64,000 nucleotides of DNA from Leptospiraceae bacterium. Its GTDB lineage: Bacteria > Spirochaetota > Leptospiria > Leptospirales > Leptonemataceae. Below, piece by piece: positions 24,180 to 34,198 of the stretch; positions within the stretch are counted from its first letter, which is position 1, and every line of letters begins with the position of its first letter. The stretch is from positions 416,001-480,000 of the forward strand of contig JAVJNR010000004.1 in the NCBI GenBank assembly GCA_040217195.1. The letters run 5' to 3'. Both the position numbers and the translations under genes were made by a program. The notes under the pieces are model-generated. The model worked only from the letters and a program-made list of their open reading frames with translations. It did no database searches and was not told where the DNA came from.

Positions 24180-27100
24180 TGGTCTGCCTCCCTGCCAGCG
24201 GATGAAAGCGTTGGCCAATCTGAAAATAGAGTACCGGAGTAATCAGAATATCCAGAGCTGTTGAGGTAATCAGACCTCCGGTTATGACAATCGCCACAGG
24301 AAACAGGATCTCCTTGCCGGCCGCATCTGGACCGGTTAACAAAACCGGAGCCAATGCCAGTATTGCTGTACCTGCTGTCATGAGCATGGGAACCAGCCTT
24401 TCAAGGGCACCGCGAAGGATCATTTCCTCTGTCAGATCTTCTCCTTCCTGTACCATCAAATGTTCAAAGTGCGAAAGCATCAGAATTCCATTTCGTGCCG
24501 CAATACCGGTGAGAGCTACGAAGCCAACCATGCTGGCAAGTGTGAGACTAGATCCAGTAATTAGCAGTGCTAGCAAGCCGCCCACCGCAGCCACCGGCAG
24601 ATTAAGCAGGATTTGAGCTGTTAGAATCCATGAACGGAAATGGGCATATACGATCAGAGAAATCAGAATCAAGGAGGCAAGCGCCAGAAGCAAAAGACGT
24701 CGGCTGGACTCCTGCGCTACTGTATACCGTCCCGCCAGTTCATATCTGGCATTACTCCAATCCATGGATTCAAGCTCCTGCTCCGTCTGTGCCACCACAT
24801 CTTCCAGGGGACGGTCCTGAACATTGAATTGGACTACCATGGCTCGTTCTCCCTGCTCCCGGGGAATCTCATAGGGTCCGCTGGAGGTATACACATCCGC
24901 CACCTGTTCCAGACGAACGGCCGATCCATCCGGTCTATGTCTGAGGGTGATTCTCTTTAGGGCCTCTGCTTCCAGGTCCGACTCTTCCAATCGAATCCGC
25001 ACCGGAAAAAATTTCTCTTCCTCTCGCACGGTTCCCACCTGGCGGCCCAGCTGAGCGATCTGTAGAGTCTCGATAATGTCTGGCGCTGCCATTCCATTCT
25101 GTCCGGCTTTTGCATGCTGAATGATAGTTTTCAGTTCCGGTGCCATACTCATGGCTTCGGCCCTTACATCCACAGCGCCAGGGATGGTCTTGATCAATTC
25201 ATTAACCTGATAGGTACGGTACTGTAGCGAACGAAGATCTGTGGCAAAGACTCGCACTGCAAGCTGGGATCGAATACCAGAAAGTAAATGGTCCAGTCGA
25301 TGGGAGATCGGCTGTCCGAATCCTACGTTAATTCCCTCGATCTCTTCAAATTGCTTTCGTAACTCGGATTCCAGTGCATGCCGACTTTCTCCTGATAAAC
25401 CAGGTTTTAATCCAACATCGAATTCGCTATAATGCACCCCTTCTGCATGCTCATCCCCTTCTGCCCGTCCAGTGCGACGTGCAAAATGAGTTATCTCATC
25501 GTACCGTGATAGAACGGCCTCAATCTTCATTGCTTTTTCGGCAGAGGCACGAAGTGAGTTTCCGGGAGTGGAAATAACTTCCAGAGTCATGGTTCCTTCA
25601 TTGAATTCCGGCAGAAAATTCAATGGAAGAATCAAAAAAGCAATCAGTCCGGCACCCAGCATCACAGATGCGAAGAGAAAGGAGACCCCGGGCCGGCTTA
25701 AAAGTTTCTTAAGGTTGCTTTGCTGCCAGGATTTTAGCCTTCGAACCAGCATGCTTTCTTTTTGTGCGAATTTATATTTGCCCAGAAGTAAATAGGCGAG
25801 CACCGGAGTTACAGTCAAAGCAACAACCAGAGAAGCGGCGATGGCTACAATGTATGCAATTACCAGCGGTTGAAAGAGCCTTCCCTCCACTCCTTCCATA
25901 AATAGAAACGGGATAAAAACCAGGATGACCGTTGCAGTCGCCAGCACTATGCTGTTTCGAATCTCCGAGCTGGCATTATAAATCACACCGAGCGAAGATT
26001 CCGGAGATCCTGCCGCTTGATTTTCCCGCAACCGGCGAAAGCAGTTCTCCACGTCCACCACGGCATCGTCCACCAGCTCACCAATGGCCACCGCAAGACC
26101 GCCCAGAGTCATGGTATTAATTTGCAAACCCAGGAATTGAAGAAGCAGCACAGCGCTCAATAGAGAAAGAGGCAGTGCCAGTACTGTGATAATCGTGGTG
26201 CGAACATTCCATAGAAACAGGATCAAAATCAGTATCACTATGATGGAGCCGTCCCGGATTGCTTCGGATACATTTTCTATAGCAGTTTCTATAAAGCCGG
26301 CCTGCAGAAATAGCTCCGGATGGATCTGGATCTCTCCTTCAACATCCTTCTGTAGATCGTTGAGTTCCTCCTGGATTGCACGAGTCAGATCCAGAGTCGA
26401 CGCCCCAGGCTGCTTCTGAACTGCAATGATGACACCCTGCTGGCCGGAAATCCCGGCATCCCCTCTAGGTGGCAGATGGCCTGACTTTACAGTGGCCACG
26501 TCCTTAAGTTGTACTGGCCGACCGGCTTTGAATCCGATCAGGGCACTTGCAATTTCATCGGCGGAGAAGATCTCTGCCTGATTGCGAAATGCTACCTGCT
26601 CATCCTCCTTTTCGAAGAATCCTCCGCCAGAAACTTCACCCACTGGATCCAGTCTGCGGGACACTTCAATGAGAGAAAGATTGGATCGCGTCAGACGATC
26701 TTCATTTACCAGTATATCATATGTGCGAGCTTCGCCACCCAGGGCTGTCACAGAAGAAACGCCGGGAATGGCCAGTAGCCTTTTTCGCACATCCCAGTCT
26801 GCAAACGTTCGCAGGGTAGCCAGATCTGCTTGCGATTCCGGAGCAGCGGTCAGCCCGATGAGCATGATTTCGCCCATTACGGAACTGATGGGCCCCAGAT
26901 GCACCTCCACATCGCCGGACAATTCCAACCGGGCCCCGTCCAGCTTTTCATTTACAATCTGCCTGGCCCGGTATATATCCATATCCCAGGGAAATTCCAG
27001 ACGGATCTTCGCTACTCCTCGACGACTGGAACTTCGAATTCCCTCCACTCCAGGGGCACCCATCAGGGCTCGTTCCAGGGGAAGGACAACCTTTCGCTCC

Positions 27101-27324
27101 AGATCCTCGGCCGCCATGCCGGGAGCTTCCACGAGCACGGTGACGACCGGACGATTCAAATCAGGAAATACGTCGATAGAAAGTTCACTGCTACGAATCA
27201 ATCCCGCAGCCAGAACAAGTAATGCAAGCACCAGAACCGTACCTCGGTTCTTTAATGACATTTTGATAATGCGGTCCAGTAGCCCCGGAGCGGAGCCGCT
27301 ATGCGCCTGATAATTTTTTTTCAA
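24163..27324 (-). CDS. Heavy-metal efflux RND permease (CzcA/CusA-like)
   Basis: DVFPDL, GELVDDAVVDVEN and RLVPMLMTA motifs, about 1050 aa. SD GAGGAGG then TTG at 27324. Confidence 0.92.
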   Translation of the reverse strand: MKKNYQAHSGSAPGLLDRIIKMSLKNRGTVLVLALLVLAAGLIRSSELSIDVFPDLNRPVVTVLVEAPGMAAEDLERKVVLPLERALMGAPGVEGIRSSSRRGVAKIRLEFPWDMDIYRARQIVNEKLDGARLELSGDVEVHLGPISSVMGEIMLIGLTAAPESQADLATLRTFADWDVRKRLLAIPGVSSVTALGGEARTYDILVNEDRLTRSNLSLIEVSRRLDPVGEVSGGGFFEKEDEQVAFRNQAEIFSADEIASALIGFKAGRPVQLKDVATVKSGHLPPRGDAGISGQQGVIIAVQKQPGASTLDLTRAIQEELNDLQKDVEGEIQIHPELFLQAGFIETAIENVSEAIRDGSIIVILILILFLWNVRTTIITVLALPLSLLSAVLLLQFLGLQINTMTLGGLAVAIGELVDDAVVDVENCFRRLRENQAAGSPESSLGVIYNASSEIRNSIVLATATVILVFIPFLFMEGVEGRLFQPLVIAYIVAIAASLVVALTVTPVLAYLLLGKYKFAQKESMLVRRLKSWQQSNLKKLLSRPGVSFLFASVMLGAGLIAFLILPLNFLPEFNEGTMTLEVISTPGNSLRASAEKAMKIEAVLSRYDEITHFARRTGRAEGDEHAEGVHYSEFDVGLKPGLSGESRHALESELRKQFEEIEGINVGFGQPISHRLDHLLSGIRSQLAVRVFATDLRSLQYRTYQVNELIKTIPGAVDVRAEAMSMAPELKTIIQHAKAGQNGMAAPDIIETLQIAQLGRQVGTVREEEKFFPVRIRLEESDLEAEALKRITLRHRPDGSAVRLEQVADVYTSSGPYEIPREQGERAMVVQFNVQDRPLEDVVAQTEQELESMDWSNARYELAGRYTVAQESSRRLLLLALASLILISLIVYAHFRSWILTAQILLNLPVAAVGGLLALLITGSSLTLASMVGFVALTGIAARNGILMLSHFEHLMVQEGEDLTEEMILRGALERLVPMLMTAGTAILALAPVLLTGPDAAGKEILFPVAIVITGGLITSTALDILITPVLYFQIGQRFHPLAGRQTNESDV

Positions 27325-27329
27325 TGATT

Positions 27330-27399
27330 CCTCCTCGTTACATGCAATGAGAGACCGGGCCATTGAAAGGCTCGGTTCAGGACTCTAGCAACGAGGAGG
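27330..27399 (-). promoter_or_regulatory. SD-sequestering hairpin (candidate translational attenuator)
   Basis: mRNA CCUCCUCGUUGC (27399-27388) pairs with GUAACGAGGAGG (27341-27330): 12 bp, one of them G-U. Confidence 0.7.
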
Positions 27400-27948
27400 C
27401 GGAATTCGAAACGGAATGAGGCCGGAAGCAATATCCGAAGGAGAAAAGCCACGGGTCAAAAATCGATTCGGAGGCCGCGAAATTAATTCTCCGGATCCAG
27501 GATCCAGTGGGTGGTAAGATAGGAGACCGAAATGGGACGGAATCTTTATTCGAAAATCCGCTTCCTGGAATGCTGGCAAAGCATCCTGCTCGAACAATGT
27601 GAAGAAAGTAAAAAAGGGAATAGACCCATGGTCTGCTGGTCCAGCGTTCTGCCCGGGCACCGGCTCAATAGCAGCATCGCATCCTGCTTTCCAGGAATTG
27701 GCCACAGGAGCAGTCCGATCCGAGGATCTCTTTACGGCATGGTGACCATGGCTGTGCTCCGTATGCGAATGTAGGTGTGCCGAATGTCCCCTGGATGATG
27801 CAAATTTTTCCAGAATCCCATCATGGAAATGAACATAGCTTCCCTGCAACCCCTCATGGGAATGTTGACCCAGCACCGGGCCGCTCAGCTGAAGTAACAA
27901 TCCCTGAATAAGCAGGACTGCAGCAACTATGTGGATTCTAGATCTCAT
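27385..27948 (-). CDS. His-rich exported leader protein ending RIPPPRC (candidate arrest peptide)
   Basis: Signal peptide, 12 His in aa 29-70, SRPP at 157-160 and RIPPP at 181-185. Confidence 0.7.
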   Translation of the reverse strand: MRSRIHIVAAVLLIQGLLLQLSGPVLGQHSHEGLQGSYVHFHDGILEKFASSRGHSAHLHSHTEHSHGHHAVKRSSDRTAPVANSWKAGCDAAIEPVPGQNAGPADHGSIPFFTFFTLFEQDALPAFQEADFRIKIPSHFGLLSYHPLDPGSGELISRPPNRFLTRGFSPSDIASGLIPFRIPPPRC

Positions 27949-28009: not shown

Positions 28010-28042
28010 GCTCCGATAGAACCGTCGGCCCTCTATCGGAGC
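28010..28042. terminator. 11-bp hairpin after gltA
   Basis: GCTCCGATAGA...TCTATCGGAGC, without a clear U tract. Confidence 0.45.
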
Positions 28043-28054
28043 GCCGGGAAAGAA

Positions 28055-30931: not shown

Positions 30932-33900
30932 TTAGACGCCTTCGCCCTCTTCCCGATCCGGCACATGAAAGAGCTGCCTCAATTGCAGGGACCATCTTGT
31001 GATAATCGTATAAAGTACAGGCACCAGAATCAGAGTTACCCCTGTGGAAAACAGAAGCCCCCAGGCAAAGGACAATGCCATGGGTACAATGAATGGATCC
31101 TCCCCACCAATACCGTAAGCGGTGGGTAGCAAACCAAGGACCGTGGTAATGGTCGTGAGAAATACGGCCCGAAGTCGCATGGAGCCGGCTTCCATGGCTA
31201 CCTGTTCCAGAGGAAGGTCCGGATTCTCTTTATGAATACTATTTGCAAAGTCGATCAGTACGATGGAATCGTTTACCACAACTCCAGAAAGTCCGATGAT
31301 GCCCATCATGGCCAGAAAGCTAAATGGCTCTCCATGTATAGCGAAAGCCAGGATGACACCAATCAAACTGAATGGTACTGAAAGCAGAATTACCAGAGGC
31401 TGAAGCACCGAGCGAAATAAGCTGGCCAGGATCATGAATATGATCACGATTCCAACCAGGAAAGCCTTACCAAGACTGGCCATGGACTCTGCAGTGTCTT
31501 CGTTCTCACCACCCATGGCCATGGAGTAGCCCGGATACTCGTCGATAATACCCTGTGCAAGCTCCTGGAATTTGCCGGCAGCCTCAACAGCGGAAGTCTC
31601 ATCCTCATTTATATTGGCCGTTACCTGAACCAGGCGATCACCGTCCAGGTGGCTTATAGAATTGACTCCCCTTTCGCGCACGGTATAGATCAATTTCTTA
31701 ACAGGAATTTGATTACCTGTCATATTCGGAACTTTCGCTGAATAAAGACTATCCAGTTGCTCACGAAACGGGTCATCCAGCATAACTCGAATATCCACTT
31801 CTTCGTCCGGCCTTCGCACCGAAGTGGCCACAACACCATCAAAGGTTGCATTGACTGCAATGGCAACGCTGGAAGCATTGATTCCGGTTTGAGCAAGTAC
31901 CTGTTCATTGAACTTGATCCGCTCTTCCATCTTGCCGGGTTCATTGGAGTCTTCAATGTCCATTACATAGGGAACCTTTGTAAGCACCTCTTTGTATCTT
32001 CCAGCAAGCTCCTCCAGTGTTTCCAGAGAATCCCCGGTTAATTCAATGGCCACAGCTTTGCCCACCGGCGGACCACCTTTGAGTTTCTCCATATCCAGGC
32101 TTGTAAGTGTACCGGCCAGATCTTCGTAACCGGGCACAGGTTCGGTCTGAAGCGCTGGCAATTCCAGCTCATCATCCTTTTCTTTCATCTGATTTCGCTG
32201 TTCTTGAAGCCGCTTCCTGGCTTCCCCACCCAGCATCCAGAATGTGGCAGCACGAAGATCATCGATGGAGGCCTGGGCGGACCTCTCTCTGCTGTTTTCC
32301 GGAGTCAGATATACAAGTAACTGAGCATATTGATTTCCTCTTCGCGTGAATGGATCGTTGGGATTCTGCTGAATGATTCCTACCCGAGTGGTATAGGTAT
32401 CCAGCTCCTCTTTAGGAAGCTTTTCTACACTTTGCTCCACTACTTCGGTGTAGCGGTTCATTTGCTCCAGGGTTGTTCCAGGCTCCGCCGTCAGCTTCAC
32501 ATGAAATGTTTCAATGGCACTGGGAAAGAGCACAAATTTCCCGAATGCTGCCTGGATACCCCCGGCTACAATTACCATTGCGAACAATACAACTGCCACT
32601 ACCCATTTATTCTGAAGTGCAAATTGCAGCGAAGGTTCATAGGTTTCTTTGCGAAATCGATTAAACCACCCACTTTCTTCTTTCATCTCGGATCCAGTTT
32701 GACGGGTCATACGATTCATGTCGTAGAGGTGAGATGGCAGAATAATCAAGCATTCAAACAGGGAAGCGACAAGGGCAATAATGATGACAAGTGGAATGGT
32801 AAATACAAACTTTCCGAAAATACCGGTCATGAACATCAAAGGACCAAAAGCAGCGACGGTTGTAACGATGGTAGCTGTTACCGGAGCCACCACTTCCGCA
32901 GTCCCTTTCCTTGCAGCCTCAAAGGGACTGTAACCCTCCTCCAGGTATCTGTAGAAGTTTTCGCTTACGATAATAGCGTCATCAACGAGAATACCAATTA
33001 CGATGATAAGGCCGAACATGGAAATCAGGTTCAAGGTCACACCAAGAGCACTCATTACAATGAATGCGATTCCAACAGAAATGGGAATTCCCAGAGCAAC
33101 CATTAAAGAAGTGCGCCAGCCCATAAAGAAAAACAGAGAGCCAACCACCATGATCAGACCCACGGCAGCATTGTTACTAAGTACTCCCAGGCGTCGGTTT
33201 ACAAAGTAGGATACATCGTTTACGAATTCAATGCGAATCCCATCAGGCATTGTGTCCTGATATCGGGCTACGGTGCGGCGCACTTCTTCCACTACAGTGA
33301 TGATGTCTGCGCTGGATTGCTTCAGAACCGTTAAACTGATAGTCGGAAAGCCTCTAGTTTTTTCAATGTAATCGGCTTCTTCAAAGGTTTCCAGAACCCG
33401 GGCCACATCTTGAACTCGAACAAGTTGACCCACATCGTTTCCGCGAATAGGCACCTGCCTTACCTCTTCGATGGTTTCCAGCTCACCGACAGTACGAATC
33501 ACAAGTGCATCGCCATTATGCACTACTTCACCGCCCGGAAAATTTACGTTTCGGTTTTGTAGAGATTGAATGATTTGACCAAGGCTAACGTACTTATCAT
33601 TCATCAGACCGGGATGCACCCGTACCTGATATTCCACATCCTGCCAGCCCCTTCGTGCAATACGCGCAACTCCATCAATGTCCAGCAGATGATCCTCTAG
33701 ATTCTGTGCTTCATCCCTTAGCTCTTTTTCCGAAAGAATGAAGGCACCATCCTTTTTAGTCCGACTTACACTTACTTCTATTACCGGGGTTCGGCTGGAA
33801 GTAAGCTCTACTATTACCGGCGTCTCTGCATCACCGGGAAGATCCTCGGTCCGGTCCACAGCAGAGCGAATATCATCTATTACTTTCTGGCTATCATCTT

Positions 33901-34198
33901 CATCTGGATCAATGGTAATGGTAACGACGGAGAGATTCTCCACAGAGGTGGACCGGAACTCTTTAATCCCATCCACTTCTTTGATTTGATCCTCAATAGG
34001 ATTTGTGACCAGTTTTTCCACTTCCAGGGGTGCCGCCCCGGGATAGATGGTCTGTACGTTCACTATGTCAAAATCAATGTTCGGGAATGCTTCCCGGTTC
34101 ATGGTTGCTGCAATGACTCCACCAAACAGAACGATGGCCAGAGTGAGCAAATTCACGAATAAACTGCGGTTCAGGAAATACTCAATGAAAGCTGCCAT
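30932..34198 (-). CDS. AcrB-family RND efflux permease
   Basis: REAFP, GILVDDAIIVSEN, GVVVND and RLRAVFLTT motifs. Confidence 0.93.
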   Translation of the reverse strand: MAAFIEYFLNRSLFVNLLTLAIVLFGGVIAATMNREAFPNIDFDIVNVQTIYPGAAPLEVEKLVTNPIEDQIKEVDGIKEFRSTSVENLSVVTITIDPDEDDSQKVIDDIRSAVDRTEDLPGDAETPVIVELTSSRTPVIEVSVSRTKKDGAFILSEKELRDEAQNLEDHLLDIDGVARIARRGWQDVEYQVRVHPGLMNDKYVSLGQIIQSLQNRNVNFPGGEVVHNGDALVIRTVGELETIEEVRQVPIRGNDVGQLVRVQDVARVLETFEEADYIEKTRGFPTISLTVLKQSSADIITVVEEVRRTVARYQDTMPDGIRIEFVNDVSYFVNRRLGVLSNNAAVGLIMVVGSLFFFMGWRTSLMVALGIPISVGIAFIVMSALGVTLNLISMFGLIIVIGILVDDAIIVSENFYRYLEEGYSPFEAARKGTAEVVAPVTATIVTTVAAFGPLMFMTGIFGKFVFTIPLVIIIALVASLFECLIILPSHLYDMNRMTRQTGSEMKEESGWFNRFRKETYEPSLQFALQNKWVVAVVLFAMVIVAGGIQAAFGKFVLFPSAIETFHVKLTAEPGTTLEQMNRYTEVVEQSVEKLPKEELDTYTTRVGIIQQNPNDPFTRRGNQYAQLLVYLTPENSRERSAQASIDDLRAATFWMLGGEARKRLQEQRNQMKEKDDELELPALQTEPVPGYEDLAGTLTSLDMEKLKGGPPVGKAVAIELTGDSLETLEELAGRYKEVLTKVPYVMDIEDSNEPGKMEERIKFNEQVLAQTGINASSVAIAVNATFDGVVATSVRRPDEEVDIRVMLDDPFREQLDSLYSAKVPNMTGNQIPVKKLIYTVRERGVNSISHLDGDRLVQVTANINEDETSAVEAAGKFQELAQGIIDEYPGYSMAMGGENEDTAESMASLGKAFLVGIVIIFMILASLFRSVLQPLVILLSVPFSLIGVILAFAIHGEPFSFLAMMGIIGLSGVVVNDSIVLIDFANSIHKENPDLPLEQVAMEAGSMRLRAVFLTTITTVLGLLPTAYGIGGEDPFIVPMALSFAWGLLFSTGVTLILVPVLYTIITRWSLQLRQLFHVPDREEGEGV

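Follow-up and report, generated by a model that had tools for sequence, protein, structure and literature searches.

A leader gene ahead of a heavy-metal-type RND permease

We analyzed a 64,000-nt window from the genome of a Leptospiraceae bacterium, in which an operon on the reverse strand (22235-27324) begins with the gene for an RND permease of the heavy-metal type (CusA/CzcA-like; 24163-27324, UUG start, PF00873). The best NCBIfam model for the permease is TIGR00914, at a score of 652 bits that lies below the cut-off of 701 but still makes this the best family by far. The nearest solved chains are ZneA and CusA, and no metal could be read from the alignment of the pump to CusA. The permease gene is followed by genes for a TolC-like outer-membrane efflux protein (22731-24218, PF02321), whose start codon is uncertain, and for a small exported His-containing protein with a GPHGG motif (22235-22666), which travels with the operon, being present in 7 full-length related loci and in the related operon G024, and which has CzcB_N among its Atlas structure neighbours (TM 0.54-0.57). 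A full adaptor gene is absent from the operon and from the related loci examined, and a search of the window's genome for the adaptor of a distant pump homologue gave two matches, both weak; most metagenome homologues of the pump have an adaptor gene directly upstream. In related loci, the neighbouring genes are those for a cation efflux protein and for a P-type ATPase of the heavy-metal type. A second RND permease (30932-34198, reverse strand) lies 3 kb upstream, is nearer to multidrug-type models and shows no sign of belonging to the unit. In addition, three metagenome loci (L042, L029 and L087) carry pumps that are 44-46% identical and have no adjacent adaptor; small His-tagged exported proteins precede or flank these pumps, and no R-x-P-P leader lies directly upstream of them.

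Upstream of the permease gene and on the same strand lies the leader ORF P0001 (27385-27948), which the initial annotation had described as 187 aa long with 12 histidines in aa 29-70 and the C-terminus RIPPPRC-stop, a description that is borne out by the coordinates and counts. Residues 6-25 are hydrophobic (Kyte-Doolittle 1.7-2.0) and form part of a confidently modelled AlphaFold helix (residues 2-21, pLDDT >90), so that hydropathy and AlphaFold together predict a Sec signal peptide or N-terminal hydrophobic helix at aa 1-27 (27868-27948), which would presumably be cleaved. The following HxH...HxH segment (H29, H31, H40 and H42; 27823-27867) is a putative metal site on the basis of conservation and structure: H29, H31, H40 and H58 are invariant and H42 is nearly invariant in 10 aligned leaders, and AlphaFold predicts a beta-hairpin at aa 28-41 (strands 28-33 and 36-41, pLDDT about 80). 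It opens the His-rich tract at aa 29-70 (27739-27864), which holds 12 of the 16 histidines of P0001. The only two cysteines stand at positions 90 and 187, and neither a CXXC nor a CxxxC motif is present.

The remainder of the model mostly has a pLDDT below 50 (mean 55). The linker at aa 73-169 had been taken for low-complexity sequence, which does not hold, with a lowest 12-aa entropy of 2.45 bits; it is instead divergent, with 12/97 and 19/97 residues identical to the two closest leaders, and predicted to be unstructured (pLDDT <50). Against the same two leaders, 13 of 18 residues of the His segment are identical. The C-terminal 18 aa (PSDIASGLIPFRIPPPRC; 27388-27441), which would occupy the exit tunnel and end in IPFRIPPPRC, are likewise conserved at 13 of 18 positions against two same-type relatives, and synonymous changes separate the G, P and R codons of this tail from those of relatives. 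Within it lies the putative arrest or pause motif R-I-P-P-P (aa 181-185; 27394-27408), in whose place relatives have RAPP, RGPP, RPPP or RTPP.

P0001 has no Pfam or NCBIfam match, all its matches among Atlas structures have a TM below 0.35, and it scores as non-coding in a hexamer model (-3.7). A phmmer search with P0001 returned one non-self match, a 4-row leader profile run against 1.84 billion proteins returned three matches, and a 10-row profile returned four, all of the profile matches being the inputs themselves. Because sequence searches with the leader found almost no relatives, these were sought through the pump and through a whole-genome profile search. We found no obvious SD for the leader itself, nor a promoter or start signal for it. 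An 11-bp hairpin without a U-run (28012-28043, reverse strand) lies 3' of the stop codon of a citrate synthase gene and upstream of the leader. Pairing of the leader with this citrate synthase gene as its partner was rejected, as the upstream genes differ among relatives.

The predicted helix at the leader-pump junction

The leader and the permease gene are separated by 60 nt, most of which is paired. The codons for the final P-P-R-C of the leader (CCU CCU CGU UGC, 27388-27399), the first of which would be in the A site at the predicted stall, form an anti-SD arm that is predicted to pair over 12 bp with the SD arm of the pump gene, GUAACGAGGAGG (27330-27341), and the UUG start at 27324 lies five bases 3' of AGGAGG. 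This complementarity, its cover of the pump SD and the UUG start lie at the coordinates claimed in the initial annotation. The 46-nt loop contains an inner hairpin found by folding (ACCGAGCC/GGCCCGGU, 27354-27376), whose sequence is not conserved in the relative G006, where a different inner hairpin folds instead. The folding check proposed in the initial annotation gave a positive result, since the 12-bp helix with its inner hairpin is both the minimum-energy and the centroid fold in all four folding windows that hold both arms. The z-scores in these four range from -3.9 to -5.1, and in each of them none of 200 shuffles is as stable, while a fifth folding window lacking the 5' arm has a z of only -0.6.

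We calculated how much energy is needed to open the stretch from -15 to -4 relative to the start codon, both when the last 45 bases of the upstream gene are present and when they are left out. The cost for the pump SD falls from 20.0 to 4.3 kcal/mol once the leader tail is removed (ΔΔG 15.6). Across 617 same-strand junctions of 35-110 nt, ΔΔG has a median of 0.0, reaches 4.9 at the 99th percentile and never exceeds its maximum of 7.1, a background that comes from the window's genome only and from genes called by a simple caller, several relatives being richer in G+C. Among 200 synonymous recodings of the leader tail none locks the SD as well (median 6.7), indicating that the proline codons alone are insufficient for the helix. 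A ribosome footprint placed at RIPP lowers the opening cost from 21.4 to about 4 kcal/mol (3.8-4.2), and a terminating ribosome lowers it to 5.2 kcal/mol. Folding thus supports gating of the pump by leader translation, and it does not separate a stall from plain coupling, because the terminating ribosome opens the helix about equally well.

As the initial annotation had expected of a pump without its own promoter in the intergenic region, no promoter-like site occurs in the 60-nt gap. The single such site found, against 1.1 expected by chance, is a weak one (9/12) inside the leader at 27459-27430, and a transcript starting there would retain the entire locking helix. An alternative pump start at the in-frame ATG at 27363 was rejected, as no SD precedes this ATG and G006 has no such ATG. 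Non-ATG starts are common among these pumps, with TTG in the window's genome (G000), G006 and G048, GTG in G044 and G045, and possibly CTG in G057.

Related operons and the proline motif

Close matches to the pump are present in 7 of 155 other genomes of the order (E 1e-200, five candidates scored per genome), and all of them belong to the family of the window (7/41), the other family giving 0/114. A search with the small GPHGG protein added one operon from another family (1/400), and the leader profile search added two more, G046 and G024. A leader of the same plan is found at all ten related operons. The conservation of RxPP, which had been proposed as a check, was found in 9 of the 10, where R-x-P-P lies within 10 aa of the stop; these nine are kin from five genera and two families and are not independent. 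The leaders of G044, G045, G046, G057 and G265 have RAPP, that of G017 ends in RGPPLCS, those of G048 and G049 have RPPP and that of G006 ends in RTPPPC, giving five RAPP, one RGPP, two RPPP and one RTPP. By comparison, R-x-P-P occurs in the last 12 residues of 4 of 3932 called genes of the window's genome. The exception, G024 (L092, G024:C1:1879500-1887000), has a leader ending in RPPAH and a pump in several fragments, reflecting decay or an assembly fault. The G017 pump contains one internal stop. A database protein without DNA context, P0002, also ends in RTPPPC. A pump search of genome contigs gave one distant locus, which has an adaptor gene and no leader adjoining the pump.

The related leaders are 133-200 aa long and 19-40% identical to P0001. 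In all 10 aligned leaders the first HxH lies at aa 25-30, and its distance to the Arg of the motif varies from 96 to 166 aa, a combination that fits a site needing to reach the periplasm. The Arg of R-x-P-P is encoded by CGA, CGC, CGT or AGG, and in G017, G044, G045, G049 and G057 most or all of the anti-SD arm is 3' of the Pro codons, indicating that the motif is kept as a peptide, separately from the RNA arm. The idea that Pro-Pro is a by-product of the anti-SD sequence was rejected by this position of the arm in relatives together with the synonymous recoding.

An SD lock is present in seven of the nine relatives (ΔΔG 11.6, 8.5, 10.7, 10.2, 9.7, 7.0 and 6.0) and is built from different sequences; G265 has none (ΔΔG 0.0), and G057, whose start codon is uncertain, has little (1.3). 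The synonymous control is strong in five relatives, where 1 to 8 of 100 recodings lock as well, and weak in G049 (3/30), G048 (9/30), G057 (18/100) and G265 (49/100). The gaps in G048 and G049 are longer (154 and 207 nt). In the comparison with G006, the closest relative, 10 of the 12 pairs are retained, and in the other two both partners differ (G-C to C-G and U-A to G-U). Thus, of the conservation and covariation that had been suggested for the helix, the conservation and the two compensatory pairs stand, but the two-sequence covariation is not significant by itself, as 112 of 500 shuffles score as high. The leader family is represented a second time in G044 (L006, after the operon) and in G045 (L094, G045:C24). 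These additional copies (GVHVH...RAPP) stand in front of another kind of small exported gene, with a P-type ATPase nearby, and give ΔΔG values of 2.7 and 6.6.

The window leader differs from its relatives in having RIPP, which is neither RAPP, RGPP nor a listed permissive variant. RIPP is not avoided in the window's proteome (16 observed vs 10.8 expected); RGPP (0 vs 9.1), RDPP (0 vs 7.2), RAPP (4 vs 10.4) and RPPP (2 vs 7.3) are depleted. The substitutions that the available text of PMC12992588 lists as supporting ApdA/ApdP arrest include neither Ile nor Thr. Nevertheless, RIPPP occupies the site of the relatives' established arrest motifs, because nine relatives carry R-x-P-P there. Each of the three R[I/T]PP leaders carries a run of three prolines, compared with two in the RAPP and RGPP leaders, and efp is present in the window's genome. 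Ile at position 2 supports arrest poorly, and for this reason the pause in this genus probably rests on the Pro-Pro-Pro run, which would be sensitive to EF-P, together with the conserved upstream GLIPFR, and we infer a polyproline pause of the CutF type at RIPPP.

Two further loci of the window's genome carry similar arrangements, with exported leaders ending in HAPPAA (G000:C6:99348-99806, forward strand) and NAPPAS (G000:C9:77895-78311, forward strand) before CzcA-type operons, each with an SD-masking helix (ΔΔG 10.6 and 10.4 kcal/mol, respectively). With the locus of the window, such leaders precede three of the five best TIGR00914 loci of the genome. Leaders of the CruR/CutF type with a CxxC motif (CPVCQ), ending in RPPP and RDPP, are also present (G000:C5:176426-175953 and G000:C1:691103-690654, both reverse strand); they have no Pfam hit, and the genes after them, judged by reading their sequences, suggest a link to copper (MbnP/MbnH-like genes and a nitrite reductase region). 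Among the best 80 of 570 metagenome loci of the pump group, 28 have an upstream R-x-P-P ORF, and within at most 3 kb upstream the motif occurs in 29 of 201 same-strand ORFs vs 1 of 318 opposite-strand ORFs, counts in which one ORF looks like chance and one repeats G045. From this set of the best 80 of 570, 11 ORFs were picked, and 8 of them match DUF6769 (PF20558).

A candidate nascent-chain switch and its known counterparts

The leader-plus-hairpin unit is real and well supported. For its function, we lean slightly towards a CutF-like switch, in which P0001 would act in cis to gate translation of the RND pump and a proline pause prolonged by metal would free the start codon. The signal would direct export of the leader during translation, as suggested by work on CutF, SecM and RAPP leaders, so that the His hairpin would already be periplasmic by the time that translation arrives at the prolines, about 140 residues further on. 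In the absence of metal, the ribosome would pass, the helix would re-form and the weak UUG would stay silent. With metal on the exported histidines, the putative pause at RIPPP would lengthen, and the paused ribosome would keep the anti-SD arm covered at the A-site and entry channel, leaving the start free for the pump to be made. The on-direction of the metal effect is likewise suggested by CutF, SecM and RAPP work. The metal is probably divalent, such as Zn, Ni or Co, because the site is His-only and has no CxxC. The interpretation given in the initial annotation is partly supported.

A simpler reading is that each ribosome finishing the leader briefly opens the helix by plain coupling, the leader being a secreted His-rich metal-binding protein whose arrest motif has decayed in this genus. 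The low opening cost left by a terminating ribosome (5.2 kcal/mol) is consistent with it, as is RIPP being neither depleted nor a listed permissive variant; we nevertheless consider it unlikely, as the Arg, the Pro-Pro-Pro and the ten preceding residues are conserved as protein while the linker drifts to 12-20% identity, RAPP or RGPP is present in six of the nine relatives, the leader protein is mostly predicted to be unstructured, and a comparable lock-and-release is absent from the 617 ordinary junctions. The sign of the switch could also be reversed or its input different, with the pump on by default because of a stall and shut once secretion force, or folding induced by metal, frees the chain, in the manner of CruR or SecM. 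Copper relieves arrest in CruR (PMC9426467), PMC9973294 describes CutF and CruR as non-isofunctional, and the arrest by RAPP/RGPP is robust and EF-P-resistant (PMC12992588), which would suit a default-on stall in the relatives; moreover, the family score below the TIGR00914 cut-off does not fix the pump substrate, and a full adaptor gene is missing from the operon. We judge this reading rather improbable, however, since the controlled gene is efflux-type and nearest to ZneA and CusA, the genes next to the relatives' operons are the heavy-metal ATPase and cation efflux genes named above, and a shut-off by metal would be counter-productive if the pump exports.

Control might instead be mainly transcriptional, through Rho-dependent termination after the leader or through an internal promoter, with the helix secondary. 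CruR works through Rho (PMC9426467), the leader contains one weak promoter-like site, and the gaps in G048 and G049 are longer, but the gap here is only 60 nt and mostly paired, the number of promoter-like sites equals chance with none in the gap, and a transcript from the site in the leader would still carry the whole locking helix, all of which makes this very unlikely. Finally, a spurious ORF with a fortuitous helix would account for the non-coding hexamer score and the single non-self BLAST-type relative. The comparative results already largely refute this chance reading, to which we give hardly any credence, as gene order, His motif, tail and compensated helix are conserved over five genera and two families.

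The closest counterpart of the proposed switch is CutF of Rhodobacter capsulatus, which the initial annotation did not name and in which a leader with a signal peptide, a periplasmic metal site and the tail PEPEGPPPRL precedes an SD-shielding stem-loop, and copper turns a detoxification gene on (PMC9973294; bioRxiv 10.1101/2025.02.05.636593). The CutF stall needs PPP and is relieved by EF-P (bioRxiv 10.1101/2025.02.05.636593), and the available text of PMC9973294 reports no stall by the tail alone in a LepB reporter. P0001 resembles CutF in its predicted export, a putative N-terminal metal site, a proline tail, an SD stem-loop and a metal-handling gene downstream, and its tail IPFRIPPPRC matches that of CutF in the form PPPR-x-stop; it differs in lacking the CxxxC copper motif, and no sequence match between the two was found. 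The survey of CutF-like proteins (PMC9973294) selected ORFs of <150 aa with a Sec signal peptide, PP at most 15 residues from the C-terminus and a same-strand neighbour at most 1000 nt away behind an SD-shielding stem-loop. P0001, with 187 aa, is too long for this filter, while the position of its PP, its stem-loop and its 60-nt gap fall within it and the hydrophobic helix at residues 2-21 is a candidate signal peptide. The survey's list of 5,334 proteins (File S1) may include some of the shorter relatives. The neighbours in that survey include OEP and ACR_tran genes, and its available text describes Spirochaetota members as scarce; its two His-only clusters precede HupE/UreJ genes, whereas P0001 abuts the RND permease itself.

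The precedent originally invoked was CruR (Bp2923, DUF2946) of Bordetella pertussis, which holds in that CruR is also a small first gene of a metal operon with R-x-P-P about three residues from the stop and has an export signal, as is predicted for P0001 (PMC9426467). The parallel fails in other respects covered by the available text of the same source: regulation by CruR does not need the export signal, its CXXC lies a fixed 45 residues from RAPP whereas the His site here lies 96-166 aa from the Arg, it acts by Rho termination across a 162-nt gap rather than by an SD lock with a 60-nt gap, and copper turns an import operon off whereas the target here is efflux-type. Neither P0001 nor 8 related leaders match DUF2946, a weak negative given that the two CxxC leaders of the genome also score none.

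Small exported ORFs with a C-terminal R-x-P-P and an SD-masking stem-loop freed by the stalled ribosome are also known from ApdA, ApdP, SecM and metal-related uORFs of Streptomyces (PMC12992588, PMC10987492), and RAPP/RGPP leaders precede many metal genes (PMC12992588). The RIPPP form was not found in the main text of either source, and the words efflux and CusA are absent from the main text of PMC12992588. The His-rich RAPP ORFs of DUF6769 (PF20558) head metagenome operons of the same pump group and have a signal, PHHHH and then RAPP/RGPP; they differ in containing Cys and in preceding the adaptor gene. P0001 has no PF20558 hit, and homology of the leader family to DUF6769 was rejected on an hhalign probability of 20%, over the first 40 columns only. 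CzcI of Cupriavidus metallidurans resembles P0001 as a small gene upstream of the czcCBA RND system that has been suggested to be a metal-sensing regulator (PMC9973294), and its cluster is among the Atlas feature matches to the leader (rank 28, 0.92) with no alignment-level match; unlike P0001, it has no C-terminal proline motif as described in the available text of that source.

The general mechanism is already published (CutF, CruR and RAPP surveys). In the main text of open-access papers, we found no His-only arrest leader before an RND pump and none in Leptospira-like bacteria. We tentatively suggest, as a doubtful but possible extension, that these leaders form a separate family, in which a four-His beta-hairpin would sense a periplasmic non-copper metal (Zn, Ni or Co) and signal through a long unstructured tether to the ribosome; within the family, the pause motif would have shifted between EF-P-resistant forms (RAPP/RGPP) and EF-P-sensitive ones (R[I/T]PPP), new sequence would have been used to rebuild the RNA lock, and three of the five heavy-metal RND operons of the genome would be run in this way. 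With RAPP, RGPP, RPPP, RTPP and RIPP forming a natural series on a single scaffold, the determinants of arrest strength and of EF-P dependence are open to direct test. CutF and CruR, the two leaders of this kind with a metal test in the available text of PMC9973294 and PMC9426467, sense copper through cysteines and act in opposite directions, and a His-only leader directly locking an RND permease would, if true, show that sensing by nascent chains also covers other metals and efflux.
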